A stretch of 64,000 bases of DNA from an uncultured Verrucomicrobiota bacterium (lineage in GTDB: Bacteria; Verrucomicrobiota; Verrucomicrobiia; Palsa-1439; CAYGDP01), in NCBI GenBank assembly GCA_964348665.1, contig CAYGDP010000023.1, positions 1,309 through 65,308 of the forward strand. Reading direction: 5' to 3'. Below the pieces are notes generated by a model. That model saw only the letters and a program-made list of their open reading frames with translations. It was not told the origin of the DNA and ran no database searches. Shown here one piece after another: positions 20,909-63,889 of the stretch (positions within the stretch are counted from its first letter, which is position 1; every line of letters begins with the position of its first letter). Both the position numbers and the translations under genes were made by a program.

Positions 20909-21328
20909 ATGAAGCTTGCTGTCAAATGTGATTATGCTTCTCGCGCGGTGGAGTGGCTTTCGATGAAATATCCAAGCGGGCAACCTGCGTCCATTGAGGA
21001 GATCGCTCGGAGTCAACGGATTCCTGCGAATTATCTGGTGCAGATTTTGCAGGAATTGAAGGCGAGCGGGTTGATTCGCAGCCTGCGTGGCCAAGCGGGA
21101 GGCTACATTTTGGCGCGTCCACCGGAGCAGATTAGCTTTGCCGATCTGCTCCGCGCAGTACACGGTGATGTGTTTGATATCACTTGCTCGCTGGATCGGG
21201 GATGTCCCGACGAGCTGCGGCAGGTTTGGCAGCGCCTCAAGGGCGTGTTTGAGCGCGAAGCGGAGTCGGTGAAGTTTGACCAGATCGTCACAGTCGCGAG
21301 CGGCCGCGCGCAAATGTTCGAGATTTAA
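20909..21328 (+). CDS. Rrf2-family transcriptional regulator (IscR/CymR-like)
   Basis: 'CDYASRAVEWLS...IEEIARSQRIPANYLVQILQELKASGLIRSLRGQAGGYILARP' is the canonical Rrf2 wHTH. Confidence 0.85.
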   Translation: MKLAVKCDYASRAVEWLSMKYPSGQPASIEEIARSQRIPANYLVQILQELKASGLIRSLRGQAGGYILARPPEQISFADLLRAVHGDVFDITCSLDRGCPDELRQVWQRLKGVFEREAESVKFDQIVTVASGRAQMFEI

Positions 21329-21335
21329 TTGGTGG

Positions 21336-21369
21336 CACAGGCGTCTCTGCCTGTGATTATTTGTTCTTT
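21336..21369 (+). terminator. Rho-independent terminator after the Rrf2 gene (CACAGGC-GTCTCT-GCCTGTG, then a T-rich tract)
   Basis: 7-bp perfect stem followed by 'ATTATTTGTTCTTT', read directly. Confidence 0.6.
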
Positions 21370-21381
21370 GAAAAACTGACG

Positions 21382-21409
21382 TTGACAGATTGCCCAGCTG
21401 TGGTAGAGT
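21382..21409 (+). promoter_or_regulatory. Sigma70-like promoter (TTGACA-N16-TAGAGT) driving the SAM riboswitch leader
   Basis: Hexamers read directly, ~25 nt upstream of the riboswitch P1 stem. Confidence 0.55.
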
Positions 21410-21435
21410 CACGTCGCTGTCCGCCGTGGCGGACG

Positions 21436-21568
21436 CTCTTATCGAGAGTGGCAGAGGGACTGGCCCGTTGAAGCCACAGCAACCGACCGCGCTAGCAACG
21501 TGGTGACAAGGTGCTAAATCCAGCTTGTTCGTTCCGCGATGGCGGGGCAGACAGGAAAAGATGAGAGG
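21436..21568 (+). ncRNA. SAM-I (S-box) riboswitch aptamer
   Basis: 'CTCTTATCGAGAGTGGCAGAGGGACTGGCCCGTTGAAGCCACAGCAACC...GGTGCTAAATCCAGC...AGATGAGAG' matches the S-box consensus. It has P1 (CUCUUAUC/GAUGAGAG), the kink-turn GA, P3 and the GGUGCUAAAUCC junction. Confidence 0.85.
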
Positions 21569-21624
21569 AGACGCTGTTGGTTCGTCTTCCTTCCTCCCTC
21601 GATTAGCGTTCCCGCGCAGCGAAC

Positions 21625-22881
21625 GTGCGCACCATGCACAAAAACTATATGCTGGGTCTCAAATGTCGGGAATGCGCGCGGCGCTATCCGAAGGAAGCGC
21701 TGCACGTGTGCGAGTTCTGTTTCGGGCCGCTCGAAGTCGAATACGATTACGAGGTCATCGGCAAGGCGCTGACACGTGAGAAAATCCTCGCGCGTCCGCC
21801 GACGATGTGGCGCTACCGCGAGTTGCTGCCGCTGGACGGCGAACCGACGGTGGGATTCCAAGTCGGTTTCACGCCCTTGGTGAAAGCCGATCGCCTAGCA
21901 AAACGCCTCGGTGTGCGCGAATGCTGGGTCAAAAACGACACGGTCAATTATCCGACCTTATCGTTCAAAGACCGCGTCGTTTCGGTGGCGCTCTCGCGCG
22001 CGAAGGAATTGGGCTTCAAGATTGTCGGCTGCGCTTCGACGGGGAATCTCGCCAATAGCGTTGCCGCCAACGCCGCCAGCGCGGGGTTGCCCGCGTACGT
22101 TCTGATCCCCGCCGACCTCGAGACGGGAAAAGTGCTCGGCTCAGCCATCTTCGGCGCAAAAGTCATCGGGATTCACGGCACGTACGACGAGGTGAATCGC
22201 CTATGCTCCGAAATCGCGGGTAATTATGGCTGGGGTATTGTGAATGTGAATCTTCGGCCGTATTACGCGGAAGGCAGCAAAGCGATGGGCTTCGAGATCG
22301 CCGAACAACTCGGCTGGCGATTGCCCGATAACGTGGTTGTCCCGATGGCGGGCGGCTCCCTGATCACGAAGATCCATAAGTCTTTCCGCGAATTCGTAAA
22401 GCTCGGCTTCGTGAAAGACCACGCAACGAAGATTTTCGGCGGACAAGCGGCAGGCTGCGCGCCCATCGTGAATGCGATCAAGGCGGGCACGGACATCATA
22501 GCTCCCGTCAAAAAGCCGAACACCATCGCCAAATCGCTTGCGATCGGGAATCCGGCGGACGGGTTTTATGCGATTCAAACGATGAAACAGACCGGCGGCG
22601 ACGGCGAAAATCCAACCGACGACGAGATCGTCGAAGGCATCAAGCTGCTGGCGGAGACCGAAGGCATTTTTGCCGAGACCGCAGGCGGCGTGACGGTCGG
22701 CGCGGCGAAACGTCTCGTGGAAAGCGGCGCGATCAAGCGCAACGAGAGTCTGGTGCTCTGCATTACGGGACATGGCTTGAAGACGCAGGAAGCGATCAAT
22801 GGAAAGTGCGCTACGCCGCGCCTGATCGGGCCGAGTTTGAGAGAGTTCGATGCAATCTATGAGAAGGATAAGATAAAGTAG
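21625..22881 (+). CDS. Threonine-synthase-like PLP enzyme with an N-terminal 4-Cys zinc ribbon. Candidate MetM-type homocysteine synthase that would use a sulfur-carrier thiocarboxylate.
   Basis: 'PTLSFKDRVV' PLP-lysine motif of the ThrC family and 'CRECARRYPKEALHVCEFC' N-terminal ribbon. Sits directly downstream of a SAM riboswitch and upstream of a MoaD-like gene. Start is GTG 21625 or ATG 21634. Confidence 0.8.
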   Translation: MRTMHKNYMLGLKCRECARRYPKEALHVCEFCFGPLEVEYDYEVIGKALTREKILARPPTMWRYRELLPLDGEPTVGFQVGFTPLVKADRLAKRLGVRECWVKNDTVNYPTLSFKDRVVSVALSRAKELGFKIVGCASTGNLANSVAANAASAGLPAYVLIPADLETGKVLGSAIFGAKVIGIHGTYDEVNRLCSEIAGNYGWGIVNVNLRPYYAEGSKAMGFEIAEQLGWRLPDNVVVPMAGGSLITKIHKSFREFVKLGFVKDHATKIFGGQAAGCAPIVNAIKAGTDIIAPVKKPNTIAKSLAIGNPADGFYAIQTMKQTGGDGENPTDDEIVEGIKLLAETEGIFAETAGGVTVGAAKRLVESGAIKRNESLVLCITGHGLKTQEAINGKCATPRLIGPSLREFDAIYEKDKIK

Positions 22882-22954
22882 CCCGCGAAACACACGAAAG
22901 AACGCAAAAGTTTTCGAGTGTTTCGCGTATTTCGCGGGTAATGAAAGGAATAAC

Positions 22955-23227
22955 ATGCCAAAAGTAAGAATCCCAACACCGTTGAGGAAACTGACGAAGG
23001 AACAAGCCGTCGTGGAGGCGAGTGGCGCGAACATTGGCGACTTGCTCGCCGATCTCGAACGCCAATACGCGGGCATCCGCGAACGGCTTTGCGACGAAAA
23101 AGGCGAAATCCGCCGCTTCGTAAACGTCTACCTGAACGACCAGGACATTCGGTTCATGGACGGCCTCAAGACCGCCGTCAAAGACACCGACGAAGTCAGC
23201 ATCGTCCCCGCCATCGCGGGTGGGTAA
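22955..23227 (+). CDS. MoaD/ThiS-family sulfur-carrier protein ending in Gly-Gly (candidate MetO/CysO-like)
   Basis: 90 aa ending in '...VSIVPAIAGG' followed by a stop. Beta-grasp-sized protein adjacent to a PLP enzyme. Confidence 0.75.
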   Translation: MPKVRIPTPLRKLTKEQAVVEASGANIGDLLADLERQYAGIRERLCDEKGEIRRFVNVYLNDQDIRFMDGLKTAVKDTDEVSIVPAIAGG

Positions 23228-23307
23228 GAATTTGGATGGCCACAAAAAGGCACAAGAAGCACAAAAGGTAGGGGCAAGCCGCTGGCTCGCCCGCTCAAAA
23301 AGACAAA

Positions 23308-24264
23308 ATGAAAACGGAAACGAAAATCGCAAAATTGCTGGCACTCACCGCGCTGACAGTTGGGGTGTGCTCGTCGTTTGCCCGAAGTGGCGAAATCCAT
23401 GACGCGGCTTATGACGGTGACATCGAAAGAGTCGCCCAACTTATCAAAGCCAGGCCCGATTGTGTAAACGAGAAGAATGGTCTTGGCGAAACGGCCTTGC
23501 ATAAGGCCGCAGCTGGCGTTCCCGAACGTGCCATTGCTTCCATTGGAGGCCGTGAGAAAGAAAAGACGGAGAGTGATTACAGGCAGATCGCAGAATTTCT
23601 CTTGGATCACAAAGCCGACCTCGACGCGCGAGATAATCCAGGCAGGACTCCATTGCATACCGCAGCCATTCACGGTCAACTGGAAATCATCAAGACTTTC
23701 GTTGCGCGTAAGTCCGAAATCAACGCGAAAGATACGCAAGGTTGGACGCCCCTCCATTGGGTTGCAATGCACGATGTTCCAGCAGGTAGAGGGATGTCCG
23801 CCAGTGCCGCTGGGGTAATGACAATCCTACTGGACAGTGGGGCGAATGTTGATGCGAGAGGCGAATACGGGAACACGCCGCTGTACATCGCGGCCGATTA
23901 CTCCCAAGACTCGACAGATATTGTAAAGGTTTTAATCGCTCGCGGAGCAGACGTAAACGCCAAGGGCCGTAATGGCGAGACTCCACTCCACCGTGCAGCT
24001 TCCCGAGGCAACATTGGAATTATTCGCTTGCTGATCGTGAGCAAGGCCGACGTCAATGCGAAAGACAAACATGGAGCGACCCCGCTACATGAGTCAGCAT
24101 ACGAAGGCAGAAACGAAGCAGTAGAGTTTCTTGTCAAAAACAACGCCGACATCGATGCCAAGAATGAGGATGGGAAAACTGCATTGCAATTGGCGAATGA
24201 AGCCAAGCATGGGAAGTATGACGATGTGGCAGCATTCTTACGCCAGCACGGCGCGAAGGAATAA
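23308..24264 (+). CDS. Secreted ankyrin-repeat protein (at least 6 ANK repeats)
   Basis: Signal peptide 'MKTETKIAKLLALTALTVGVCSSFA', followed by repeated 'G.TPLH.AA..G....V..LL..GADVNA' units. Confidence 0.8.
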   Translation: MKTETKIAKLLALTALTVGVCSSFARSGEIHDAAYDGDIERVAQLIKARPDCVNEKNGLGETALHKAAAGVPERAIASIGGREKEKTESDYRQIAEFLLDHKADLDARDNPGRTPLHTAAIHGQLEIIKTFVARKSEINAKDTQGWTPLHWVAMHDVPAGRGMSASAAGVMTILLDSGANVDARGEYGNTPLYIAADYSQDSTDIVKVLIARGADVNAKGRNGETPLHRAASRGNIGIIRLLIVSKADVNAKDKHGATPLHESAYEGRNEAVEFLVKNNADIDAKNEDGKTALQLANEAKHGKYDDVAAFLRQHGAKE

Positions 24265-24273
24265 AACACCATT

Positions 24274-24588
24274 ATGAAAAAACGAACGACGAAAAAATCA
24301 ACGGGTGATGTAAGGGTGCACCCGCGCGTGCGCCCAACGGGCAGCAACGAGCGCAAGCGGCTCTGGCTGACGTTTCCGAAGCAGCGGATTCAGCGGCCTG
24401 TGATTTGGGAGTTGGGTCACAAATTTTCGGTCGTGACCAACATTCGGCAAGCGAGCGTGACCGAGGAGATCGGCATCGTATCGCTCGAACTGGAAGGCGA
24501 GCGTGCCGAGATCAAGCGCGCGATTGCTTGGCTGGAACACCTCGGCGTAAAGGTTGAACCCGTGGAGATCAATGTGATTGAAGGATGA
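24274..24588 (+). CDS. Small NIL/ACT-like domain protein of the kind found next to sulfur-metabolism genes
   Basis: A 104-aa protein, 'IWELGHKFSVVTNIRQASVTEEIGIVSLELEGERAEIKRAIAWLEHLGVKVE', resembles the MetN C-terminal NIL domain. Assignment by resemblance only. Confidence 0.5.
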   Translation: MKKRTTKKSTGDVRVHPRVRPTGSNERKRLWLTFPKQRIQRPVIWELGHKFSVVTNIRQASVTEEIGIVSLELEGERAEIKRAIAWLEHLGVKVEPVEINVIEG

Positions 24589-24703
24589 CCGCGAAGCGCG
24601 GAAGCACCAATGACCAAACCCCAAGCACCAAAGAAAACTCAAGCATCAATCCCCAATGCGCATTTCGCGCGAGAGGGGCAAGAGCGAGGTCTGCATTTGT
24701 ATT

Positions 24704-24758
24704 TTGGAGCTTGGAATTTGAGGCTTCCCTGGAGTTTGGAGTTTGGAGTTTGGAGTTT
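24704..24758 (+). repeat. Heptamer tandem repeat (GGAGTTT)x4 with degenerate upstream copies, in the cysH leader
   Basis: 'TTTTGGAGCTTGGAATTTGAGGCTTCCCTGGAGTTTGGAGTTTGGAGTTTGGAGTTT' read directly. A C/A-rich tract (24612..24660) precedes it. Confidence 0.8.
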
Positions 24759-24779
24759 CAGTCCGCGGGAGGTGTCGCA

Positions 24780-25502
24780 ATGAAATTCAGCCCAGAAGAG
24801 TTGAAACGGTTGTCCGTGGACTTTGAGCAACAGCGTCCTCCCGCCGTGCTGCGGTGGGCGATTGAACAATTCTGGCCGCGCGTGGCGATCAGCACGGGGT
24901 TCGGCCCGGAAGGACTGGTTATCATTGACTACGCCATGCAGCTCGACAAAAAAATCCCGATCTTCACGCTCAATACAGGTTTTTTGTTCAAGGAGACGCA
25001 AGAGTTGAAGCAGCAGCTTGAACAGCGTTACGGCATTCAGATCGAGTCGCTGCATCCCGATCCGGTCGAGGTCGAACAGTTGACCGCCAAGCACGGCGAT
25101 GAGCCGTACAAGGTCGTGCCTGATCTCTGCTGCCATGCGCGCAAGGTTTTGCCGATGCGAAAAAAGCAGCAGACGCTCGACGCGCTCATCACGGGCGTAC
25201 GCCGCAGCCAAGGCACGGAGGCACGTGCGCAAGCGCAGATGTTGCAGGCGCAGCGCGACGCGGCGACGAGCCACGAGCTTGTGAAAATCAACCCGCTGGT
25301 CGGGTGGACCAAGGAAGAAGTCTGGTGGTATATCGTCAGCCACGAGCTTCCCTACAATCCGCTCCACGATAAAAATTATCCCTCCATCGGTTGCTGGCCT
25401 TGCACTCAGCCTGTTTTGGAAGGCGAAGACGAGCGCGCCGGACGCTGGCGCGGTCTGCAAAAGAAGGAGTGCGGCCTGCATACGTTTATGTCGGACATCT
25501 AG
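24780..25502 (+). CDS. cysH: Assimilatory (P)APS reductase CysH of the Fe-S cluster type. Start is ATG 24780; the track ORF is extended upstream through the tandem repeat.
   Basis: 'DLCCHARKV' plus 'GCWPCTQ' (CC...CxxC cluster cysteines) and the C-terminal catalytic 'ECGLH'. Confidence 0.85.
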   Translation: MKFSPEELKRLSVDFEQQRPPAVLRWAIEQFWPRVAISTGFGPEGLVIIDYAMQLDKKIPIFTLNTGFLFKETQELKQQLEQRYGIQIESLHPDPVEVEQLTAKHGDEPYKVVPDLCCHARKVLPMRKKQQTLDALITGVRRSQGTEARAQAQMLQAQRDAATSHELVKINPLVGWTKEEVWWYIVSHELPYNPLHDKNYPSIGCWPCTQPVLEGEDERAGRWRGLQKKECGLHTFMSDI

Positions 25503-25522
25503 TCCGACGGAAAGGACGAATT

Positions 25523-25819
25523 ATGGAATTCACCGAGAGAGAAAAAGTTATTTTGAGCACGATCGAAAAAGAGCTGACGCAATTCCGGCCACGCCGGATC
25601 ATTGCGGTAGTGATTGCGATTCTCTGCGTCGTATTCTTGGGAGTGGATGTGGCCTGGCGTGGGCCGCGTGCCGCTGCGGATGATCTTCCCTCGATCGGGT
25701 TTACGGCGCTTCTGTGTGTCTTCTTTTGGATTGTTTCCTGGATCGAAGAAGGATACACGCGTCTGATCCAGAAATTATTGGCGGAAAACAACCGCTTGCA
25801 GCAAAACCAGAAAGCATGA
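25523..25819 (+). CDS. Small hypothetical membrane protein (2 TM helices)
   Basis: ATG 25523 preceded by AAAGGA. Hydrophobic segments 'IIAVVIAILCVVFLGV' and 'FTALLCVFFWIVSWI'. Confidence 0.4.
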   Translation: MEFTEREKVILSTIEKELTQFRPRRIIAVVIAILCVVFLGVDVAWRGPRAAADDLPSIGFTALLCVFFWIVSWIEEGYTRLIQKLLAENNRLQQNQKA

Positions 25820-26091
25820 CCATGAAACCAAAACCTTCGATTCCCAATCGCGTGACGATGATCGTCACGTGTGTGGACGGCACGAAACACAAGTTTGAGT
25901 TTCAGCCGCGGCCCGACCTAACCAATCAAGCGGGGCGTATCGAGCAAATGCTCGAAGCGCCGAATCTCGTGCTCGAGCTGACCGACCGCATGATGGTCAT
26001 CCCGACGCATAGCATTCGCAGCGTAGAGTTTACGCCCAAGCCTGCCAAGCTGCCCGAGCGCGCGCTGCGCAATGTGCGGATCGTGCCGTGA
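25816..26091 (+). CDS. Small hypothetical protein (91 aa) between cysH and cysD
   Basis: ATG overlaps the upstream stop (ATGA). No recognisable motif. Confidence 0.35.
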   Translation: MTMKPKPSIPNRVTMIVTCVDGTKHKFEFQPRPDLTNQAGRIEQMLEAPNLVLELTDRMMVIPTHSIRSVEFTPKPAKLPERALRNVRIVP

Positions 26092-26214
26092 TACCGGAGA
26101 AACCGAACTATGAATGAAACGGAAAGGATTTTGACCCGCGAAACACGCGGAAAGACACGAAAGGAAAGCGGAGATTTTTTCGCGTAATTTTGCGTTTTTC
26201 GTGGGTAACCTTTT

Positions 26215-27027
26215 ATGGACTACTTAACAAAACTCGAAAACCAAAGCATTTTCATCCTGCGCGAGGCGTTCAACAAGTTCGAGCATCTCGCGATGCTCTG
26301 GAGTATCGGCAAAGACTCGACCGTGCTGCTCTGGCTGGCGCGCAAGGCGTTCTTCGGCCATGTGCCGTTCCCGCTCGTCCACGTGGACACCACCTACAAA
26401 ATCCCCTCCATGATCGAGTATCGCGACAAACTCTGCAAGGATTGGAACTTGAAGCTAGTGGTCGGCAAAAACGAGCAAGTCCTGCGCGACCAGCGCGATT
26501 ATCCGCATGGCAAAGCCACCCGCGTTGAGTGCTGCGGTACGCTCAAAAAAGACGCGCTTAAACAAGTGCTCGATGAGCATCATTTTACAGGCGTCATCGT
26601 TGGCGTGCGCCGCGACGAAGACCCGACCCGCGCCAAGGAGCGGTATTTTTCGCCGCGCGACAAGAATATGGAATGGAACGTCGAAGATCAGCCGCCGGAG
26701 TTGTGGGATCAGTTCAAGACGGACTTCGAGCCAGGCACGCACATCCGGATCCATCCGCTCCTGCACTGGACGGAGCTGAACATCTGGGAATACATCGAAC
26801 GCGAGAACATCCCGGTGATTCCGCTCTATTTCGCCAACGAAAAAGGGGAGCGTTTTCGCAGTCTCGGCTGCTATCCGTGTACCTTCCCGATCAAATCGAA
26901 TGCGAAGACCATCCACGACATCGTCGAGGAACTTCGCACCACCAAAACCTCCGAGCGCGCCGGCCGCGCGCAGGACAAGGAAAGCGAAGACGCGTTCGAG
27001 AAACTGCGGAGGGATGGATACATGTAA
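26215..27027 (+). CDS. cysD: Sulfate adenylyltransferase subunit 2
   Basis: PAPS-reductase-like PP-loop '[19 protein letters not shown]' and overall CysD architecture of 270 aa. Confidence 0.9.
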
Positions 27028-27099
27028 ACCCAATCGTCCTCGTCATCGTCCTCGTGATCGAATTAGAAACAGCCGAGGACGACGACGAGAACGAATGAA

Positions 27100-28974
27100 A
27101 TGAATGTAACAACCGAACAACTTAAAATCGTCATTGTCGGTCATGTGGATCATGGCAAGTCCACGTTCATTGGTCGTCTGTTCTACGACACGGGCGCGCT
27201 GCCCGAGGGCAAATACGAGCAGTTGGTTGCCGTCGCCAAGCGCCGCGGCGTGCCGTTCGAGTGGGCGAACTTGATGGACGGCCTCCAGGCGGAGCGCGAC
27301 CAGAACATCACGATTGACACAGCGCAGATCTGGTTTCGCACGCCGAAACGCCAGTACGTCATCATTGATGCACCCGGTCACAAGGAATTTTTGAAAAACA
27401 TGGTCACCGGCGCGGCGAACGCGGAAGCGGCGCTGCTGTTGATTGCCGCCAACGAAGGCGTGCAGGAACAATCGCGCCGCCACGGTTTTCTGCTCTCCCT
27501 GCTTGGAATTAAGCAAATCGCCGTGCTGGTCAATAAAATGGACCTCATAGGTTACAGCGAGAAAGAGTTCAAGCGGATCGAGGCAGAATACCGCGATTTT
27601 CTGACCAAAATCGGCATCACGCCTAAACTCTTTATCCCCATTGCGGCAAAAGAAGGCGAGAACGTCGCGAAAGCCTCGCTGCAGATGAAATGGTACAATG
27701 GGCCGACGGCGCTTGCCGCCCTGGACAGCTTTGAAGTTGCCGCGCCGCCACAAAATCTGCCGCTGCGGTTCCCGATCCAGGATGTTTACCGCTTCGACGA
27801 CCGTCGGATCCTCGCGGGTCGCGTTGAATCGGGTACACTCAAGGTCGGCGATAAAATACTTTTCTCGCCGCGCAACAAGCAAAGCACCATCAAGAGCATT
27901 GAAAACTGGCCGCATGGTTCTCGTCAATCGGCCAGCGCGGGCGAGAGTATCGGGATCACGCTCACCGAGCAGATTTTTGTCGAGCGCGGCCAAATTGGGT
28001 CGCTGGAAACCGATGCGCCCATCGAAACCGACGTGTTCAACGCGAAACTCTTCTGGCTTGGCCGCAAAAATCTGGAGGTCGGTCGCCGGGTAAAACTCAA
28101 GCTGAGCACCGAGGAAATTGAGTGCCAGATTCAATCCATCGAAAAACTCATTGATGCTTCGACGTTGAATGAGATTCCGCTGGGCGAACGCAAACACATA
28201 GCGCGCAACGATGTTGCCGAGATCACCATCCGCACCAAATCCCCTGTCGCGTTCGACAACTACAACCGCATCGTGCCGACCGGTCGGTTCGTCATTGTGG
28301 ACGATCGCCAGGTCTGTGGCGGGGGTGTCATCAGCAAGGGCGAATATCCCGACCGTCGCTCCGTCCTTTCAGGAGTGAAGAGCCAGAATATATCCTGGAC
28401 GGCCGCCACGGTGGATCGCGCCGCGCGCGAACGCCGCAACAAGCACAAAGGCGCGGTGCTCTGGCTGACCGGCTTTAGTGGCGCGGGCAAAAGCACCATT
28501 GCCGCCGAGCTGGAACGCGAACTCTTCCACATGGGCTTGCACACCTACGTGCTGGACGGCGACAATGTCCGCCACGGACTTAGCGCCAACCTGGGTTTTT
28601 CACCTGAAGATCGCACCGAAAACATTCGTCGCGTAGGCGAGGTTGCCAAACTCTTTGCGGATGCGGGAACGCTGGTCGTCACAGCGTTTATTTCGCCCTA
28701 TCGCGACGACCGACGCCTTGTTCGTTCGATCCTCCGGGAAGGGGAATTCATCGAGGTTCATGTCAGCGCTCCGCTCGATGTCTGTGAACAGCGCGACCCC
28801 AAAGGTCTCTACAAAAAAGCGCGCGCGGGTCAAATCCAGCATTTTACGGGAATCAGCGCGCCGTATGAGCCACCGGAAAAACCCGAACTCACCATTCACA
28901 CGGACAAACACACCGTTGCCGAATGCGTCGCGCAGATCATAGATTATCTCAAACGCGAGCATATTGAGATGTAG
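27100..28974 (+). CDS. cysNC: Bifunctional sulfate adenylyltransferase subunit 1 / adenylylsulfate kinase (CysN-CysC fusion)
   Basis: N-terminal GTPase '[14 protein letters not shown]', 'DAPGH', 'NKMD'. C-terminal APS kinase P-loop '[13 protein letters not shown]'. Confidence 0.9.
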
Positions 28975-29400
28975 GGCGCTTTTAACAGCTTTTGAATTAC
29001 TCGCCGCGCGGGGGCACGCGGCCTTCAATAACGCAAATTTCAGGTGGGAAGGTTGTAGGCCGCGCGCCCCCGTGCAGCGAAATTGGGATAAATCAACAGG
29101 CAGCTATGGCTTTATCAATCGGGAAATTTCTGAGCCATGCTTGTCGCGCACATTTACCCGTGCTATTCTTCCGATTGTCGTGAACCACCAAACCCCAGCC
29201 TGCCCGAATCCCGCTGTCCCTTATTTGCCGCGCGAGCAGCAGTTCATTCAGGGCGTCGTAGCGCAATTCAACGATGACGAACAGCGCTGGCGGCGACTCG
29301 AACACGCGCGCACCCGTCGCCGGAAGAATGCGTCGCTCTCCGCCGAATTTCTCAAACTGCTCGATGTGCTGGACGATCCCGCCTCGCATAAACCAGCAGA

Positions 29401-29991
29401 TTGTATTGGGACGCTGCTTTGAAACCGCCGCGCAAAATAATTAAATCCTACAGGGCATCGCGCTCTCTCGTTCCGGTCGAGCGCATCCACAACGTCATCG
29501 TTCTCCTCCGCGGCCAGAAAGTCATTCTCGACGCTGATTTAGCGTTGCTGTACGGCGTGCCTACCAAGGTTCTTCTTCAAGCGGTGAAGCGAAATCGCGA
29601 CCGATTCCCGTTGGATTTTATGTTTCGATTGACTGCCACAGAGACGAAAAACTTGAGGTCACAATTTGTGACCTCAAGTTGGGGTGGTCGCCGCTACTCG
29701 CCATACGCATTTACCGAGCAGGGCGTTGCCATGCTCTCCAGCGTGCTGCGCAGTCCGCGCGCCGTGCAGGTCAACATTGAGATCATGCGCGCGTTCGTTC
29801 GGCTGCGGCAAGTGTTGGCGACGCACGCCGACCTCGCGCGAAAGCTCGATTCTCTTGAAGCGCGGCAGGACGCAGAGTTCGCTAAAGTTTGGCGCGTCAT
29901 CCGCGAACTGGTACAACCACTCGACCCGCCTCGCCGGAAAATCGGCTTCCTTCAAGAAGAGGGTGGGAAATATCGTATCAAGCCCCGCTAG
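29401..29991 (+). CDS. ORF6N-domain protein (KilA-N-like putative DNA-binding protein)
   Basis: '[25 protein letters not shown]...[23 protein letters not shown]...[24 protein letters not shown]' matches the ORF6N domain. Start choice is uncertain. Confidence 0.6.
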
Positions 29992-37710: not shown

Positions 37711-37794
37711 TGCCGGCGGAGGGAATCGAACCCACACGCCCTTTCGGGCACTGGATTTTGAGTCCAGCGCGTCTGCCAATTCCGCCACACCGGC
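37711..37794 (-). tRNA. tRNA-Leu (anticodon CAA), class II with a long variable arm. CCA is not encoded.
   Basis: The reverse complement reads GCCGGTG...CTGGA-CTCAAAA-TCCAG...TGCCCGAAAGGGCG...GGTTCGATTCC...CGCCGGCA. It has a 7-bp acceptor stem, anticodon loop CUCAAAA, T-loop TTCGATT. Confidence 0.8.
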
Positions 37795-43785: not shown

Positions 43786-47523
<3,738 letters not shown>

Positions 47524-47542: not shown

Positions 47543-50500
47543 TTAAGCTTGCGTTACGGCTTTGGCAAGGTTGGAAACGATATCGTTGTGGATAAGCGCG
47601 AGGTGGAGAGGGGAATTGGCTGTGGCAGATTCCGGCAATGGCGGTGCTATAAACTGAAACTGTGCAGGTAAGAGGTTGATCACATTTGCGAATCCCGAGC
47701 CCCTTTGTAAAGTAGTCACGCCGTCGGCTTCGGCGACTTTCCCGAGCTTTACCGAGCCAGTGAGGGTGCTGCTTTGAGGCACTACATTCGATAGTTGCAG
47801 CTCTTGGACTTCGCCATTAGTCTGCATGGTTAGACGCATCAAGCCTCCACCTTTCAGTGTTAGGGCAACTGAGTCGCGATTGCTATCGCTGTACTTGATT
47901 TTTGTGCCGAGGCCTAGAATGATGCCGAAGTTTCCACCTGCAACAAAATCGCCAGAAGGAAAGGAACCACCAAATTCTCCGTCGAGCCGGTCTCCTTCGA
48001 TATCAGTGACCGAATCGAGAATTGAGTAACGGATGAGACGACCTTGCTTGATCGTTTTCAAGGGGGTTAGAGTTACGGTACGCGCAGTAGGGTCATAGGT
48101 GATTGTGGCTATAGCCGTGGCGATATCATCGGCAGTTCCTAGCAGCTTATCGGTTCCCGCATTAAACACCCCGAAGTTGAAAGGGTTTTGGGCAGTTGCG
48201 GGATCGAGTGCTTCGCTGAAACGAATTACTACTTTGCTTATGTTTTTCTTTGCAGTAAGAAAATCCACAGCGACGAGAAACGGTCCGGTATCTACGATGT
48301 TAGCAGTTGCGTCGGTAGAATTATTGGTTAGGTTCGGATCAATTTCCCCTGCTTGAACTTGTGCTGTAAAAGACAGATCTCCTTCTTCCGTCGGAATGAG
48401 GGTGAGGCTAATATCGGACGAATTACCGGCGGTTACAGTACCCATATTGCAGGTGACCACTGAACCAATTGAATTGCATAATACAGATGGAGTTGAAGAA
48501 AGAAAGGTCAGGGTCGTTGGCAATACTGCCAAAAACTCCACAGACAAGCCGGGTTCTGGTCCGCTGTTTTGGACGTGGAATGAGTACGTAACGGGCGCTC
48601 CCACGCGGCTTGGACTGGGAGGCACCATTACAGCCAGGGCGAGATCGGATACCGCGTCCGTGTCCGCCATCTGGAGAATAGGCACTACACGGATTTGCCC
48701 TGTCGCCAGGAAACCACTCGACTCCGCTCCAAACTCTTTGTCGTTCAATTGGGCTACTACTTGGACGAGATGGTCACTGTTGAGACCGGTCAGTTGAAGC
48801 TCGAACGGCATATCCACGGGATTCGGTAGCCAACCGATGCCATCTTCGTTGCCCATATAGAAACTTCCGGGTATTTCGGTCAGAACACCAGTGGCAGAGC
48901 TGTATCCCAATCGTCTGCCGACCGCATCCACCAAAAATCCCTCGACCGGATCGAAGAAAACTGTGAGGAATGACCTCAGAACGGTGAGTCCGGCGGTGGC
49001 TGTTGAATTGAGCAAGTTGGATGAAAATGGATCGCCTTGAATAGTTAGCCCCAATTGGATCATGATACGACTCTGCACATCCAGATTGGAGACCATTCCC
49101 GTGTGCGTAACATCTGTAAACCGTGCTTCTTCTAGCTTGGGGTTGGTTGGGAACAAACCTGCAGCCGAAATGGTTGGAACCGTTTCGTCTCCGCTGTTTG
49201 TAGCTGTGATATCATCGAAAAACACTGTGCTGAAACTTAGAACGGGGTTACTGATTATGTCGGTAAACGGCAACACACAGCACCCCGGACCTGTTTTTTG
49301 CTCGACCTCGGTTGGAGTTTCTTGACCGGTCCCGATTACATTCAGGATCGATCCAAGAATGTTGTCGAGAACAAGCTGCGGTCCACCGTTTGCATTGAGA
49401 TCTAGCAATAAGCTGTTACGGTCGGCCGGCCGATCATTGACGTCTACAACTGTGTCGCCAATTCTCAAGAATGGATAGGTTGCCAGCAAGGCTCGTATGG
49501 TAGGAACGTATTTTTCAATAAAAAGAATAGGGTCGGGTTCTTGAGTTGTTGGATTTGTGATGGATACTATTGTAATATCTTCGTCTGTACCATCGATTGT
49601 TTCACCTTCCAGAACTTTCTCGTAGGCGTGATTAATGATTTTGGAAAAGACGAACCGATTGGTAGAGTCAAAATTCCAGTTGTCATGGAGCGGGTTCCAT
49701 GCTTTCGAAGCGCCGAGGTTTGGCACACCTAGCATAATAAAGTTCCGCACCCGAGGCAGGTTTACCGTCTCGCCAGAGGAAAGCACAAATTCACCCCCGT
49801 AGCCATCACTCTGGAAATAAGAACGGGAAACAAGTCCGCCAGTACTGTGGGAAATGATATTGACCTCTTCGAGCGGTTCGGACGGAAATCGCGCGTGCCA
49901 TGATTGCACCGCTTGTTTCAACCAAAACCCGAGATAATCCATACCAAAGACAAACTGGTCGGCAGTGATGTCTATTGCAGAACGAGTGATCGTGCCGTCC
50001 TGTGCCGCTTCGATTGGTCCCGGCAGGAGCCTCCAGTCGTAATTTGCGGAGAAGATGTCAAAATTATCCGTGTAACCTATATTTCGGAAGGTTTGAATCA
50101 AATCATCATAGACTCGCAAAAGCGGATCGATCAGCAGATCTTCGGGACGGACACCGCGATGTCGAAGCCAAAACGGATACTCGCTGGAGCGAGGGAAGGT
50201 CGCACCGATGCCAGGAACAATCAGCACTGGGGCGCGCGGTGGGCTGAACTCGGACGTGTTACCATCAGGATCAATAGCAGTGGCAGATATAAATTCATCA
50301 GAAACTAATTCAACACCAAAATTCAGCGAAAAAGTTACCGTCCCATCGTCGTCAGTAAGTTGAACCGTTGATCCTAGGAAACGGGATGAACCCCCTTGAT
50401 TGTTTGTATCAGCAGATTGAATGGCAAACACCTCAATCGTATAGGCAGTGTTGGGAGCGCTCTCGAGGAGCCATCGAGTTTCAGTCAGTCCCGGTGACTG

Positions 50501-52939
50501 GCGGATTTGTGTCAAAACAGGAAAATTCTGCTGGAGATTGGAATCGAGATCGGCGTCCAGTGGGTCATTATCAGTACGTCCGTCCCCTCCCAAGTCAATG
50601 CGCATCAGCTCGTTGGAGAAGATGCGATTACGAGTGATCAGATTTCGATTGCCGAACTGGACAACGACACCTTCCGCTTGATTGAATGCGATACTATTTG
50701 CGGCTCCGTCTTCGGTCCCGCCGACGGTGTTCAAACTTGCGCCTTCACCAATAAAAATACCAGGGCCGATATTTCCCAGCGGTGATAGGCCATTGAGTTG
50801 GATGCCAATGAAGTTACCTTGGAGGAAATTGTTAGTTGCGCTCGCGCCGATAATCTTTATACCACCCATTCCGTTTGATGAAATCACGTTGCGAGAGCCT
50901 GAAACTGTGCCGCCGATGAAGTTTTCAGGAGCATTTTCGATAACCACACCTCCAGCTTCATTTTGGAGGTCGGATGTGCCAGTGGCATTCGTGCCGATGA
51001 GATTGCCTAGCACGACATTACCGCTAGCATCGGCGCCGAAAATCAGGACGCCAATCTCCTGATTGCCAGCAATGACGTTACCAGATTGGGAAGCAATTCC
51101 ACCAATGGTATTATTCGGTGCGCCATTTATCGAGATGCCTAGCCGGTTGCTCAAGGGAAGATTCCCTTCATTATCGGTGCCGATATAATTGTTCGATACC
51201 AGATTTCCACTGGCAGTATTGCCTTGGATTACCACGCCGAATAATTCATTGCCGGAAATTACGTTGCTGACAATTGCTGCGTTGCCTCCAATCGAGTTCC
51301 CGGAAGACTCTTCGATTCTTACCCCGTCACCGCTATTTCCCAAGTCCATCTCACCGGTCGGATTAGTTCCAATAAAATTGCCATGCACGACATTCCCAGT
51401 GGCGAGGTCGCCTCGGATCTCCACACCGCTTCCTTTGTTGCCTGAGATCGTGTTGGTGGAGCTCAGAGATCCTCCACCAATCGTATTGTGGGGCGCATTG
51501 GAAATGAAGACGCCGTCCATATTGTTTGGCAAGATGGCAACTGCAGGCGAGTCGCCAGCGATAACGAAATCTGTCTGTCCCACGTTGATTCCCAAGTAAT
51601 TCCTCTGAATAAGATTTCCTGTCGCTGATCCACCGACGATTTCGATTCCATGCTGGTCGTTTCCGGAAATCAGATTGCCAGACCGAAGCGCAGTTCCTCC
51701 GATGGTGTTGTTTGGTGCGTTGCCAATGATAATACCGGACAGGGAATTACCACGGTCGATCGTTCCCGACGAGTCTGTTCCAATGAAATTCCCCATGATT
51801 ACATTCGCACCGGTCTGTGTTCCAGTAATGAAGACGCCTGCTTCGAGATTACTCGAGATAATATTTCCTGCTCCCGCCTCGACTCCCCCAATAGTGTTGT
51901 TGACAGCCGATTCACCCAGTCGTACACCGCTAAAGTGATTGGGCAATGGGTCATTCCCATTCAAACTCAAGCCGATCCAGTTTCCCATCACCTTATTGCC
52001 GAACGCATCGTTGTGTATTCCAACGCCGTTGGCAAAATTGCCGGCGATCAAGTTACGCAACTGGGAATCAGCTCCACCGACAGTGTTGTTATTGGCTGTG
52101 TCTATATGCACACCGTCAAAACCATTTCCAATTGGTTGTGTTCCCAAAATATTTATTCCCACCAGGTTGCCAACCACCACGTTGCTGTTCCCTTCGATAA
52201 TCTCGATTCCGCTCTCGCCATTACCCGAGATCAGGTTTCGAGCTGCGGGAACTGCTCCGCCAATCGTATTATTGTCCGAGACCACGAGAACGCCAACCCC
52301 ACCATTTCCACGATCCTGAGCGCCAGTAATATCGGTCCCAATGTAGTTACCATGGACAGTATGCCCACCACTTCCAAACAACAGTATACCTGCCCCGCCA
52401 AAGCGGTTGATGACCAAACCCGTCACGGTACTACTACTGCCCGAAAGAGCCAATCCTGTCGGGGTCGGTACATCCAGGATGGCTGACCCATCCAGCTCGA
52501 TGATCGGCGTGACATTGAATCCCGGCTGGGTCTGGCCGTCAATTAACACAGGTTGGCTAACGGTCGGTAATAGGCTCAACGGGCGAATGGTCTGCTGGCC
52601 TGTAGCGATGCTAAATTCGATGGTGTCGAGAAATCCATCTGCATTGGCTTCCTGAATCGCTGCCCTCAATGTACAGATATTGCTTGGAGGAATGGGCGGT
52701 TCTGCTTCAGGATTACTAGCCGTATCGCAAATCCCATCCCCGAGTAAGCTGTCGCCTAAATCGGCTGTGGAATTTACTGTAAAGATAGAGGGTGTTGCAC
52801 GATTTTCCAACCACTCGGCCACCAAAACTACGGAACTGATGGATGTTTGTGAACTAGGACACTCGGTCCGCGTACTTGGAAACGGCTTGCCTCTCCGCTT
52901 CGCAGCACGTCGCCTTCGAAATAGGGTTTGCCAATTCAC
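47543..52939 (-). CDS. Giant secreted multidomain protein (1798 aa). It has a PVC-type N-terminus with a CSLREA-like motif, about 25 right-handed parallel beta-helix repeats, an alpha/beta-hydrolase lipase-like domain (GHSxG), and C-terminal DUF11/Ig-like repeats.
   Basis: 'LENRATPS...TVNSTAD...CTLRAAIQEAN'. Numerous 'N.IGG../GN...GI' repeats. 'IISHSTGGLVSR' nucleophile elbow. 'TYSFHVQNSGPEPGLSVEFLAVLPTTLTFLSS' DUF11-like. GC is lower than in neighbours. Confidence 0.8.
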   Translation of the reverse strand: MNWQTLFRRRRAAKRRGKPFPSTRTECPSSQTSISSVVLVAEWLENRATPSIFTVNSTADLGDSLLGDGICDTASNPEAEPPIPPSNICTLRAAIQEANADGFLDTIEFSIATGQQTIRPLSLLPTVSQPVLIDGQTQPGFNVTPIIELDGSAILDVPTPTGLALSGSSSTVTGLVINRFGGAGILLFGSGGHTVHGNYIGTDITGAQDRGNGGVGVLVVSDNNTIGGAVPAARNLISGNGESGIEIIEGNSNVVVGNLVGINILGTQPIGNGFDGVHIDTANNNTVGGADSQLRNLIAGNFANGVGIHNDAFGNKVMGNWIGLSLNGNDPLPNHFSGVRLGESAVNNTIGGVEAGAGNIISSNLEAGVFITGTQTGANVIMGNFIGTDSSGTIDRGNSLSGIIIGNAPNNTIGGTALRSGNLISGNDQHGIEIVGGSATGNLIQRNYLGINVGQTDFVIAGDSPAVAILPNNMDGVFISNAPHNTIGGGSLSSTNTISGNKGSGVEIRGDLATGNVVHGNFIGTNPTGEMDLGNSGDGVRIEESSGNSIGGNAAIVSNVISGNELFGVVIQGNTASGNLVSNNYIGTDNEGNLPLSNRLGISINGAPNNTIGGIASQSGNVIAGNQEIGVLIFGADASGNVVLGNLIGTNATGTSDLQNEAGGVVIENAPENFIGGTVSGSRNVISSNGMGGIKIIGASATNNFLQGNFIGIQLNGLSPLGNIGPGIFIGEGASLNTVGGTEDGAANSIAFNQAEGVVVQFGNRNLITRNRIFSNELMRIDLGGDGRTDNDPLDADLDSNLQQNFPVLTQIRQSPGLTETRWLLESAPNTAYTIEVFAIQSADTNNQGGSSRFLGSTVQLTDDDGTVTFSLNFGVELVSDEFISATAIDPDGNTSEFSPPRAPVLIVPGIGATFPRSSEYPFWLRHRGVRPEDLLIDPLLRVYDDLIQTFRNIGYTDNFDIFSANYDWRLLPGPIEAAQDGTITRSAIDITADQFVFGMDYLGFWLKQAVQSWHARFPSEPLEEVNIISHSTGGLVSRSYFQSDGYGGEFVLSSGETVNLPRVRNFIMLGVPNLGASKAWNPLHDNWNFDSTNRFVFSKIINHAYEKVLEGETIDGTDEDITIVSITNPTTQEPDPILFIEKYVPTIRALLATYPFLRIGDTVVDVNDRPADRNSLLLDLNANGGPQLVLDNILGSILNVIGTGQETPTEVEQKTGPGCCVLPFTDIISNPVLSFSTVFFDDITATNSGDETVPTISAAGLFPTNPKLEEARFTDVTHTGMVSNLDVQSRIMIQLGLTIQGDPFSSNLLNSTATAGLTVLRSFLTVFFDPVEGFLVDAVGRRLGYSSATGVLTEIPGSFYMGNEDGIGWLPNPVDMPFELQLTGLNSDHLVQVVAQLNDKEFGAESSGFLATGQIRVVPILQMADTDAVSDLALAVMVPPSPSRVGAPVTYSFHVQNSGPEPGLSVEFLAVLPTTLTFLSSTPSVLCNSIGSVVTCNMGTVTAGNSSDISLTLIPTEEGDLSFTAQVQAGEIDPNLTNNSTDATANIVDTGPFLVAVDFLTAKKNISKVVIRFSEALDPATAQNPFNFGVFNAGTDKLLGTADDIATAIATITYDPTARTVTLTPLKTIKQGRLIRYSILDSVTDIEGDRLDGEFGGSFPSGDFVAGGNFGIILGLGTKIKYSDSNRDSVALTLKGGGLMRLTMQTNGEVQELQLSNVVPQSSTLTGSVKLGKVAEADGVTTLQRGSGFANVINLLPAQFQFIAPPLPESATANSPLHLALIHNDIVSNLAKAVTQA

Positions 52940-62827: not shown

Positions 62828-63889
62828 ATGAGGAAGAACCGAATCAAAGTGAAGCGAAGTGGTTTGTGGGCGATGAACCTCGCAGTGTCGCTGCTGACTG
62901 CGGGCGCTACGCTCGCCGAGCAGCCGAAACCGCCTTTGGAACCGGTCTCGAACAACGAACTGCACCGAGCGGCGCGGGAAGGGCGACTCGACGCGGTGCG
63001 ACAAATGTTGGAGCGCGATCCTGCTGCGGTCAACATGGTGGATAGTCTCGGCCAAGCGCCGCTGCACGCGGCCATCGAGGGCAGGAAACTCGAAGTGGTC
63101 AAGCTCTTGCTCGACAAAGGCGCGGATACCAATATCAAAACAGTTCACCAACAAGATACGCCGCTGCATCTGGCGCTATATCGCCGAGAGCGGGAAATCG
63201 CCATTCTGCTTCTTGATAACGCGGCTGACGCGACCGCCGTCAACAAGAAAGGTATATACCCTCTGATATGGGCTGGAATGCAAGCAATGCCCGATATCAT
63301 TGAGAAGCTCCAAGCCAAAGGCGCGCAATTCAATAAGAAAGATGGTACGACTAGCGAAATGCTCTACTCAATGGCGAATGCTTGTCCGCCGGCTACCGCT
63401 CAAGAATTCAAGAAAACAGTGGATATCTTGGTAGCCAGCGGGGGAGATGTGAACTTCAAAGGTTCGACAGGGCGCGCCCCACTATTTGCTCTCGTTTACT
63501 CGAGTCCGTGGTCGAGCAAATCTGGAAAAGAAAGAATAGGTTTGGCGGATGCGCTTGTCGCTCATGATGCTGATGTGAATGCCCGCAATAAAGATGGCGT
63601 AACACCCTTGATCTGGGCTGCTTCTCGCGGCAACAAAGATGTTGTCGAGTGGCTATTACAGCACGGCGCGGATATCAAAGCAAAAGAAACCACGCGTGGC
63701 TGGACAGCTTTGCATCTTGCCGCCATCAATCGGCAAAAGGAAGTAGTGGAGCTCTTGTTGGAAAAAGGGGCGGACACAAAGATTTTGGATGCCGAAGGTT
63801 TAACGCCTTTGGGAGCAGCACTAAAATACAAAAGTATAGAGACGGCAGCGATTCTTGAGCGAAAAATGAAAAAGGAGAAGATAAAATGA
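62828..63889 (+). CDS. Secreted ankyrin-repeat protein (about 7 ANK repeats)
   Basis: Signal 'LWAMNLAVSLLTAGATLA'. Repeated 'G.TPLH.A......EVV.LLL.KGAD' units. Confidence 0.8.
   Translation: MRKNRIKVKRSGLWAMNLAVSLLTAGATLAEQPKPPLEPVSNNELHRAAREGRLDAVRQMLERDPAAVNMVDSLGQAPLHAAIEGRKLEVVKLLLDKGADTNIKTVHQQDTPLHLALYRREREIAILLLDNAADATAVNKKGIYPLIWAGMQAMPDIIEKLQAKGAQFNKKDGTTSEMLYSMANACPPATAQEFKKTVDILVASGGDVNFKGSTGRAPLFALVYSSPWSSKSGKERIGLADALVAHDADVNARNKDGVTPLIWAASRGNKDVVEWLLQHGADIKAKETTRGWTALHLAAINRQKEVVELLLEKGADTKILDAEGLTPLGAALKYKSIETAAILERKMKKEKIK

Follow-up and report, generated by a model that had tools for sequence, protein, structure and literature searches.

What does a gene that databases call a threonine synthase do behind a riboswitch that responds to S-adenosylmethionine (SAM)? 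The question is raised by a stretch of 64,000 nucleotides (nt) of contig CAYGDP010000023.1 (positions 1,309 to 65,308) from an uncultured Verrucomicrobiota bacterium; the whole of this stretch is called the window below, and positions are counted from its first letter. On the plus strand, a SAM-I riboswitch precedes a gene for an enzyme of the threonine synthase (ThrC) family, which depends on pyridoxal phosphate (PLP), and this gene is followed by one for a small sulfur carrier protein ending in Gly-Gly. An initial annotation proposed that the pair forms homocysteine in the manner of the enzyme MetM and its carrier MetO, and it named a route of the CysO/CysM kind as an alternative. Based on the comparisons described here, we consider it likely that the module is a verrucomicrobial version of MetM/MetO-type homocysteine synthesis from O-phosphohomoserine under SAM feedback.

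How firm is the connection to SAM? A scan against Rfam finds a SAM-I (S-box) aptamer at 21436-21567 (+; RF00162, 77.6 bits against a gathering threshold of 44.4, E value 1.6e-16), and the match is complete, covering model positions 1-108 of 108 and thus the four-helix aptamer. The initial annotation had placed this aptamer at 21436-21568 and had given it a promoter of its own. Both features are present, the latter as a sigma-70-type promoter, TTGACA-N16-(TG)TAGAGT, at 21382-21409 (+), which has a TG extension, matches the consensus at 10 of 12 positions, and heads the riboswitch-led operon; its distance to the aptamer is fixed in close relatives. Conservation was assessed across 80 fetched related Verrucomicrobiota loci (labeled L001 and so on), those nearest to the window, itself Chthoniobacterales-like, coming from Chthoniobacterales, Terrimicrobiaceae, and “Spartobacteria” metagenome-assembled genomes. 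A riboswitch lies upstream of the orthologous gene in every one of the 74 loci with enough upstream sequence, a count made up of 65 loci with the S-box core motif and 9 loci that the motif missed and in which Rfam RF00162 matched at 60-83 bits.

The enzyme gene, our candidate for a MetM-like homocysteine synthase (21634-22881, +), begins with an ATG at 21634 and encodes 415 amino acids (aa) with a Pfam PALP match of 229 bits; public databases already contain an identical protein. As first described, it is a ThrC-family PLP enzyme with an N-terminal ribbon of four cysteines, C11-x2-C14 and C26-x2-C29, which we refer to as the Zn ribbon. Over the 86 sequences used to count conservation residue by residue, the catalytic PLP lysine (Lys112, within an SFKDR motif) is kept in 85, the first three ribbon cysteines are invariant, and position 29 (window 21718-21720) is Cys in 9 sequences, which belong to the window's subclade only, and Asp in 77. 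The adjoining gene (22955-23227, +) encodes a 90-aa beta-grasp protein of the ThiS/MoaD/CysO kind (Pfam ThiS, 65.7 bits) that ends in AIAGG-stop, again as the initial annotation had it; this is our MetO-like sulfur carrier. Its best solved relatives are Mycobacterium tuberculosis CysO in the CysM-CysO complex (3dwg_C, E value 8e-24) and the Amycolatopsis CysO of 4n6e (BexX/CysO complex).

The two genes adjoin in 79 of the 80 loci, and the lone exception is cut short by a contig end. Gly-Gly is kept in all carriers of these loci and forms the exact C-terminal end in 78 of them, window included. Might the carrier instead serve molybdopterin synthesis, as the initial annotation had allowed? We found no moa or molybdopterin genes in the window or near the gene pair in annotated relatives, where the partner is always the ThrC-like gene. 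Riboswitch, enzyme, and carrier are a fixed unit across the clade.

Where has a unit of this kind been described before? The GapMind 2026 preprint credits Hasebe and coworkers (2024; Appl Environ Microbiol 90:e01247-24) with the report of a thiocarboxylate pathway in Streptomyces albulus that leads from O-phosphohomoserine to homocysteine. In that preprint, MetM is a ThrC homolog, “often misannotated” as threonine synthase, that acts with the carrier MetO, MoeZ, and Mec, and Mec is required for MetO maturation. A second paper puts a SAM riboswitch upstream of S. albulus metM, with metO neighboring. The remark on Mec is consistent with what is found in the nearest relatives of the window, where residues follow the Gly-Gly of the carrier (CRK in L082, N in L085, N in L090, H in L091, and a whole NIL domain in L084); on sequence grounds, carriers with such C-terminal extras would need a processing protease.

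For the comparison of orthologs, the 11.85-Mb chromosome of Nonomuraea gerenzanensis was used as a proxy for S. albulus. It holds the same module in the same order as reported for S. albulus, with a SAM-I aptamer (Rfam, 68.7 bits), then a Zn-ribbon ThrC-like gene, and then a carrier gene; the arrangement recognized in the initial annotation, a ThrC homolog beside a Gly-Gly carrier, is the one reported for MetM and MetO. The Nonomuraea enzyme is 53% identical to the window enzyme over 97% of its length, and the carrier (91 aa, ending in AVAGG) is 50% identical to that of the window. About 9 Mb away, Nonomuraea also encodes a canonical ThrC of 352 aa, without a Zn ribbon and 65% identical to M. 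tuberculosis ThrC; the N terminus of the next gene product (...VPATSANLGPGFDALG) is homoserine kinase-like, that is, thrB-like. Because this canonical thrC lies elsewhere in the genome, the riboswitch-linked gene of Nonomuraea is a thrC paralog and not the threonine synthase itself. A search seeded with the Nonomuraea protein returned Streptosporangiales only, at identities of at least 83%.

Does the window enzyme side with MetM or with ThrC? In a neighbor-joining tree of 64 full-length representatives, drawn from a search of 1.84 billion proteins, together with solved ThrCs, the four characterized bacterial ThrCs (1uim, 2zsj, 6cgq, and 2d1f, which match the enzyme at E values of 2e-46 to 9e-59) form a group of their own. 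The window protein stands outside this group, with other Verrucomicrobiota and beside an actinomycete group that includes Nonomuraea and P0126 (Micromonosporaceae), and the phylogeny that the initial annotation had called for thus favors its view. Five solved ThrCs align only to enzyme residues 54-404, which means that they are without the ribbon, and the enzyme carries an 8-residue segment that is missing from canonical ThrC. The Zn ribbon was also considered as a MetM marker in its own right and was ruled out, given that more distant “thrC” genes with the ribbon (33-37% identity), in Haloterrigena, Azospirillum, and Chlorohelix, stand without a carrier gene at their side; these carrier-less genes imply that coupling to a carrier is specific to the closer clade.

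The alignment has 27 positions at which a residue fixed in the four bacterial ThrCs gives way to another one shared by 12 clade members; at 15 of these, Arabidopsis ThrC agrees with the bacterial ThrCs. In Thermus numbering, by which the PLP lysine of that enzyme falls at K61, presumably its established number, the changes include G64V, M65V, T88L, S155N, N157R, R160Y, Q164S, G187A, G190S, A240S, I241L, and P288T. Of these residues, T88, S155, N157, R160, Q164, G187, G190, A240, I241, and P288 are common to bacterial and plant ThrCs, and all are replaced in the enzyme. Fifteen of the clade residues were checked in the 86 sequences and are invariant or nearly so. In ThrC, T88, S155, R160, and N188 (Thermus numbering) probably line the pocket for the substrate phosphate, going by structures of Thermus ThrC reported by Omi in 2003 and Murakawa in 2011; the phosphate stays bound after its elimination and steers water to C-beta. 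We would expect the phosphate pocket to be remodeled if a protein thiocarboxylate must instead attack C-gamma.

Is the partnership found beyond these two phyla? In L084 (7378-7911), the carrier is fused in frame to a NIL domain, and with this fusion as the query all 120 best matches were ThiS + NIL fusions of about 171 aa; those that are named come from Deltaproteobacteria, Nitrospirota, Thermodesulfobacteriota, and Limnocylindrales and bear labels such as “MoaD family protein.” A Zn-ribbon ThrC-like gene is part of all five sampled fusion contexts (L092 to L096); in four it directly precedes the fusion gene, and in the fifth it is two genes removed. The three ThrC-like proteins compared are 63-66% identical to the window enzyme, with the motifs SFKDRVV, STGNL, RPYYxEGSK, and KSLxIG in common, and the phyla with orthologous enzymes beside ThiS-NIL fusions are Chloroflexota, Nitrospirota, Deltaproteobacteria, and Thermodesulfobacteriota. 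Other genes around the fusions encode, in varying combinations, a ThiF(+rhodanese) E1, a rhodanese, a Prok-JAB (JAMM) protein, TusA, a ThiI-like protein, a second, CysK/M-like PALP protein, Rrf2, and ATP sulfurylase; in L094, L095, and L096, genes for a ThiF-type E1, a rhodanese, and a JAMM protein cluster with the orthologous modules. A scan of three fusion loci found no SAM riboswitch there. In total, the Rfam match, the tree, the Nonomuraea module, the absence of a molybdopterin context, and the E1, rhodanese, and JAMM clusters of other phyla support the original argument that control by SAM points to a role in methionine synthesis.

How might such a module work? We posit that CysD, CysNC, and CysH would supply reduced sulfur jointly with a sulfite reductase whose gene lies elsewhere and that a MoeZ/ThiF-rhodanese-type E1, its gene likewise elsewhere, would adenylate the C-terminal glycine of the carrier, leading to its thiocarboxylate. 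The MetM-like enzyme would bind O-phosphohomoserine on PLP and eliminate phosphate, as ThrC does, after which C-gamma would receive the carrier thiocarboxylate, whereas ThrC adds water at C-beta. A JAMM hydrolase might assist in the release of homocysteine, which would then be methylated to methionine, from which MetK (46234-47523) would make SAM. In this scheme, abundant SAM would lock helix P1 of the aptamer, the CU-rich tract downstream would be freed from the P1 3' strand, and expression of the operon would fall, whether the output step is translation, Rho-dependent termination, or weak intrinsic termination. The Rrf2 regulator encoded upstream would probably add a second, sulfur-related input through the site GTTCTTTGA beside the -35 box, and the NIL protein encoded farther downstream probably either senses a small, methionine-like ligand or works together with the carrier.

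Several points weigh against a MetM/MetO-type function. The enzyme passes the cutoffs of threonine synthase hidden Markov models (NF006050, 309.8 against 303; TIGR00260, 274.6 against 167.1), which accounts for the database name “threonine synthase,” the name given in every annotation that we encountered. For the verrucomicrobial members, the assignment is drawn from sequence throughout, and the orthology with MetM runs through the syntenic Nonomuraea proxy and not through the S. albulus sequence itself. The window contains no E1, JAMM, or canonical thrC gene. SAM riboswitches can precede general sulfur assimilation genes too, and control by SAM alone cannot separate homocysteine from cysteine synthesis. 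Finally, in a study on Microcystis, a homolog that is 51.6% identical to MetM and has a MetO-like neighbor was a threonine synthase and deaminase in vitro and gave no sign of MetM function in vivo; this is the single experimental work on a nonactinomycete homolog that we found.

Could the enzyme, then, be a real threonine synthase, possibly a synthase/deaminase of the kind suggested for the “unique ThrC lineage” of cyanobacteria, with the small protein unrelated or accessory? The passed equivalog thresholds, the uniform database naming, and the in vitro activities of the Microcystis homolog all fit this explanation, as do the intact PLP lysine and fold-type II motifs. We nevertheless regard it as improbable. 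Repressing the supply of threonine through SAM has no physiological logic, but 74 of 74 loci retain the riboswitch; a CysO-like carrier is coupled to the enzyme in 79 of 80 loci, and E1, JAMM, and rhodanese genes join the enzyme in other phyla. At residues that bacterial and plant ThrCs have in common, the enzyme carries substitutions, and Nonomuraea possesses a canonical thrC-thrB pair besides. A second canonical thrC or thrB was found neither in the window nor in any of the fetched flanks, which amount to 1.2 Mb in total and show about 20 kb per genome, a span that makes this result uninformative.

A second rival is a cysteine route. Here the ThrC-like enzyme would act on O-phosphoserine and the carrier thiocarboxylate, in the manner of CysM and CysO, and would be fed by the cotranscribed sulfate reduction genes. 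CysO is the best solved relative of the carrier, cysH, cysD, and cysNC sit in the same operon, a CymR-like Rrf2 gene lies upstream, and ThrC homologs can use O-phosphoserine, with the cysteate synthase family giving a weak match of 61 bits. That score is far below the family cutoff of 325, however, and the enzyme belongs to the ThrC family and not to CysK/CysM: its top NCBIfam matches are of the ThrC type, and no CysK/CysM model is among the 25 families listed. The actinomycete relatives show the arrangement reported for metM/metO, which act on O-phosphohomoserine, and the clusters at L094, L095, and L096 each have a separate CysK/CysM-like PALP gene of their own, suggesting distinct roles. 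The methionine branch ends in SAM, and control by SAM also speaks against this route, which the initial annotation had entertained as its alternative and which we judge to have little chance of being correct. The weakest explanation, that the module makes another sulfur metabolite (a thio-amino acid or a cofactor precursor) or that the Gly-Gly protein is a SAMP/Urm1-like protein modifier, can draw on the carrier passing the NCBIfam SAMP1 threshold (64 against 60) and on the sharing of CysO-type carriers with secondary metabolism (4n6e), but it is highly improbable given that no biosynthetic cluster genes lie nearby, that the housekeeping-like pair is conserved beside gyrAB across a whole order, and that the cys genes, like the feedback by SAM, indicate primary sulfur amino acid metabolism.

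If the module does make homocysteine, by what means does SAM restrain it? From sequence and folding, the expression platform (21567-21633, +) consists of a spacer hairpin (21567-21590), a CU-rich tract, and alternative small hairpins up to the AUG. The spacer hairpin pairs GGAGACG (21567-21573) with CGTCTTCC (21583-21590), and the CU-rich run comes next; no U-tract terminator follows the hairpin in the window leader, in line with the initial remark that the platform is not a canonical terminator. Nor was a recognizable Shine-Dalgarno (SD) sequence seen in the window leader, which reads TTAG at the position homologous to the GGAG of L082, and two mutually exclusive small hairpins lie just 5' of the AUG. 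Folded as a single sequence, the window leader gives mutually inconsistent structures, with a whole-leader z-score of only -1.46. The CU-rich tract (21583-21601) is able to pair with the P1 3' strand, and in constrained folds of the window and eight relatives (9/9) the lowest-energy structure of the downstream segment pairs that strand (GAUGAG..) with the pyrimidine tract past the spacer hairpin. We predict from these models that the helix between the P1 3' strand and the pyrimidine tract is a conserved alternative to P1. Leaders differ in what follows: L001 and L002 have clear U-tract terminators, and in L085, L090, and L091 a purine-rich SD sequence comes right after the pyrimidine tract. 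A canonical terminator is missing from most leaders in a crude scan that is indicative only, given its approximate start codons and the 14 leaders that escaped the anchoring motif.

Is SAM the only input? Directly upstream lies the gene for an Rrf2-family transcriptional regulator (20909-21328, +; CymR/IscR-like; Pfam Rrf2, 101.5 bits), whose best solved relatives are 4cic (IscR-like) and Bacillus subtilis CymR (2y75), at E values of about 1e-13 to 1e-14, and whose C-terminal half has only two cysteines, C93 and C99. This gene order is conserved in the window's subclade (L001, L002, L082, L084, L085, L090, and L091), and an Rrf2 gene also lies upstream in the deltaproteobacterial L094 and L095. 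A terminator-like hairpin at 21336-21355 (+), CACAGGCGTCTCTGCCTGTG followed by ATTATTTGTT, closes the Rrf2 transcript. Just 5' of the -35 box, at 21363-21371 (+), is the sequence GTTCTTTGA. Of the verrucomicrobial loci in which Rrf2 is the immediate upstream neighbor, 8 of 8 carry this sequence in their promoter region, and no other fetched locus does; its two other copies in the window (31944 and 54575) are both intragenic and compatible with chance. Based on this distribution, we propose GTTCTTTGA as a candidate Rrf2 operator, in which case the operon would be under dual control.

How far does the operon reach? In the closest relatives (81-87% identity), gyrA and gyrB lie on the opposite strand, followed by genes for Rrf2, the ThrC-like enzyme, ThiS, NIL, CysH, CysD, and CysNC on one strand, with gaps of 0-105 nt. 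The gene string of the window matches theirs except for an ankyrin gene between carrier and NIL, and, judged from this synteny, the ancestral operon runs on into a stand-alone NIL gene and cysH-cysD-cysNC. In the window, these later genes encode the stand-alone NIL-domain protein (24274-24588, +; Pfam NIL, 53.4 bits), whose stop codon overlaps the cysH start; CysH, a 3'-phosphoadenosine 5'-phosphosulfate or adenosine 5'-phosphosulfate (APS) reductase (24585-25502, +; NCBIfam NF002537, 244 bits); CysD, the small subunit of sulfate adenylyltransferase (26215-27027, +; NCBIfam NF003587, 371 bits); and a CysN/CysC fusion of the large subunit with APS kinase (27100-28974, +). The fusion exceeds the cutoffs of both TIGR02034 CysN (361 bits) and NF003013 adenylyl-sulfate kinase (306 bits) and falls below that of NF004035 (661 bits against 715). 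No sigma-70-like promoter was found in 22800-29800, against 3.1 expected, and the plus strand has no convincing terminator before a palindrome at 29650-29680. These negatives fit, and do not prove, a single riboswitch-led transcript of about 8 kb, for which the palindrome is the likely end. It is a perfect 14-bp palindrome past the last gene, AACTTGAGGTCACA ATT TGTGACCTCAAGTT. In relatives, the operon closes with ACT_8 and DUF6941 genes, neither of which has a homolog in the window.

The ankyrin-repeat gene (23308-24264, +; Pfam Ank_2, 248 bits) is outside the conserved system: no such gene occupies the position between carrier and NIL in the close relatives L082, L085, L086, L090, and L091, and it looks like a lineage-specific insertion into an otherwise contiguous operon. 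A second ankyrin-repeat gene lies at 62828-63889. Two hairpins flank the carrier gene. One is a strong hairpin at 22884-22940, in the 73-nt spacer between enzyme and carrier (GCGAAACAC ... GTGTTTCGC nested within CCCGCGAAA ... TTTCGCGGG, with no clear U tract), which could be an element of mRNA processing or stability, or a partial terminator that sets stoichiometry. The other is GC rich and lies just 3' of the carrier gene at 23272-23292 (GGGCAAGCC GCT GGCTCGCCC); it has a T-rich tail on the minus strand only and A-rich flanks on the plus strand. The gap between cysH and cysD (25503-26214) measures 712 nt, against about 100 nt in relatives. It contains no thioredoxin remnant, L091 having a thioredoxin gene there, and it holds two small open reading frames without a detected family, one of about 98 aa (from about 25523, with two hydrophobic segments) and one of about 91 aa (ending at 26091). 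Elsewhere in the window, metK, for SAM synthetase, is found 23 kb downstream (46234-47523; TIGR01034, 556 bits), with no Rfam match to a SAM riboswitch before it at the gathering threshold, and it is the only other met gene. A tRNA with a long variable arm (37711-37794, minus strand, 84 nt; Rfam tRNA, 56.3 bits) would be a tRNA-Leu if its anticodon loop is read as CAA, and an open reading frame of 1798 aa spans 47543-52939 on the minus strand.

What is a NIL domain doing here? The gene follows that of the carrier in 33 of 73 verrucomicrobial loci, no NIL gene lies near the Nonomuraea module, and the only solved relatives of the window protein are MetN C-terminal domains. Junctions were inspected in 19 fusions; they read PAIAGG or PAIGGG and continue with a short linker of mostly basic residues. 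In an AlphaFold model of one fusion, two domains are confidently predicted (mean predicted local distance difference test [pLDDT] score of 90.6, predicted template modeling [pTM] score of 0.54), and the sole internal segment below a pLDDT of 50 is A89-G90-G91; this segment and the pTM score together suggest a flexible Gly-Gly junction. In Foldseek comparisons, the N-terminal half matches CysO (template modeling score, 0.90-0.93) and the C-terminal half matches the C2 domain of the methionine importer MetNI (root mean square deviation [RMSD] of 1.4-1.8 Å over 75 columns). Trans-inhibition involves the binding of methionine by the MetN C2 domain. In view of the homology of NIL to this methionine-binding regulatory domain, we speculate, as a possibility less likely than not, that NIL is a third component of MetM/MetO-type homocysteine synthesis, in which a JAMM protease would free the fused carrier and NIL would couple the maturation or use of the carrier to the methionine or homocysteine pool. 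If this were true, it would amount to posttranslational feedback on a ubiquitin-like sulfur carrier, stacked here on control by the SAM riboswitch and Rrf2. Nothing in the literature searched links NIL to a MetM/MetO-type pathway.

Given that a MetM/MetO-type function is the likely one, a methionine pathway first described in actinomycetes in 2024 would extend to Verrucomicrobiota, a major phylum of soil and freshwater, and, on present sampling, to Chloroflexota, Nitrospirota, and Desulfobacterota-type lineages. Under the annotation “threonine synthase,” metabolic reconstructions would miss this homocysteine route and could miscount threonine synthases; the 27 discriminating residues offer a practical sequence signature for reannotation. 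The MetM/MetO-type function itself is already known; the association and fusion with NIL, the operon with sulfate activation genes, and the Rrf2 layer go beyond the literature that we found. The NIL pairing and fusion and the probable cotranscription with sulfate activation genes suggest ideas of how the flow of sulfur into methionine may be sensed and gated.

How does the module compare with systems that are already known? With MetM/MetO of S. albulus (Hasebe et al. 2024), it shares a ThrC-homologous PLP enzyme, an adjacent carrier of the ThiS/MoaD type, an upstream SAM riboswitch, and the threonine synthase annotation. It differs in phylum, with only 53% identity to the actinomycete proxy; its operon adds the NIL gene, cysH-cysD-cysNC, and the upstream Rrf2 gene, its E1 and JAMM genes are unlinked, and its carrier stops exactly at Gly-Gly and so would need no maturation. 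The CysM/CysO/Mec/MoeZ system of M. tuberculosis (3dwg) has a carrier close to that of the window and follows the same logic, with a protein thiocarboxylate as the nucleophile on a PLP-bound phospho-amino acid, whereas the window enzyme is a ThrC-family protein with a Zn ribbon, probably acts on O-phosphohomoserine, and would perform a gamma rather than a beta replacement. Canonical ThrC (Thermus thermophilus 1uim, Aquifex 2zsj, B. subtilis 6cgq, and M. tuberculosis 2d1f) has in common with it the fold-type II PLP core, the catalytic lysine, and probably O-phosphohomoserine as the substrate, but it is without the Zn ribbon, the 8-residue segment, the carrier partner, and the SAM riboswitch and differs at 27 otherwise invariant positions.

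A protein-thiocarboxylate methionine pathway was reportedly described in Wolinella succinogenes by Krishnamoorthy and Begley in 2011, with the components HcyS, HcyF, HcyD, and MetY. There, too, a carrier is said to deliver the sulfur of homocysteine, and removal of a C-terminal extension by a JAMM protein is possible in both cases, given the nearest relatives of the window and the ThiS-NIL fusions; the Wolinella enzyme, in contrast, is reportedly an O-acetylhomoserine sulfhydrylase of fold type I, with no ThrC homolog involved. The NIL protein of the window resembles the NIL/C2 domain of MetN (3dhx and 3dhw) in sequence (3dhx, E value 1e-4), and the NIL half of the fusions resembles it in fold, but here NIL stands alone or is fused past the Gly-Gly of the carrier, with no ATP-binding cassette ATPase. 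For the fusions as a whole, the “MoaD-related protein” of T. thermophilus, 1v8c, is a solved precedent for a two-domain architecture that starts with a beta-grasp domain: the Foldseek alignment spans the entire ThiS-NIL model (171 columns, 23% identity), while the orientation of the domains differs (RMSD, 14 Å).

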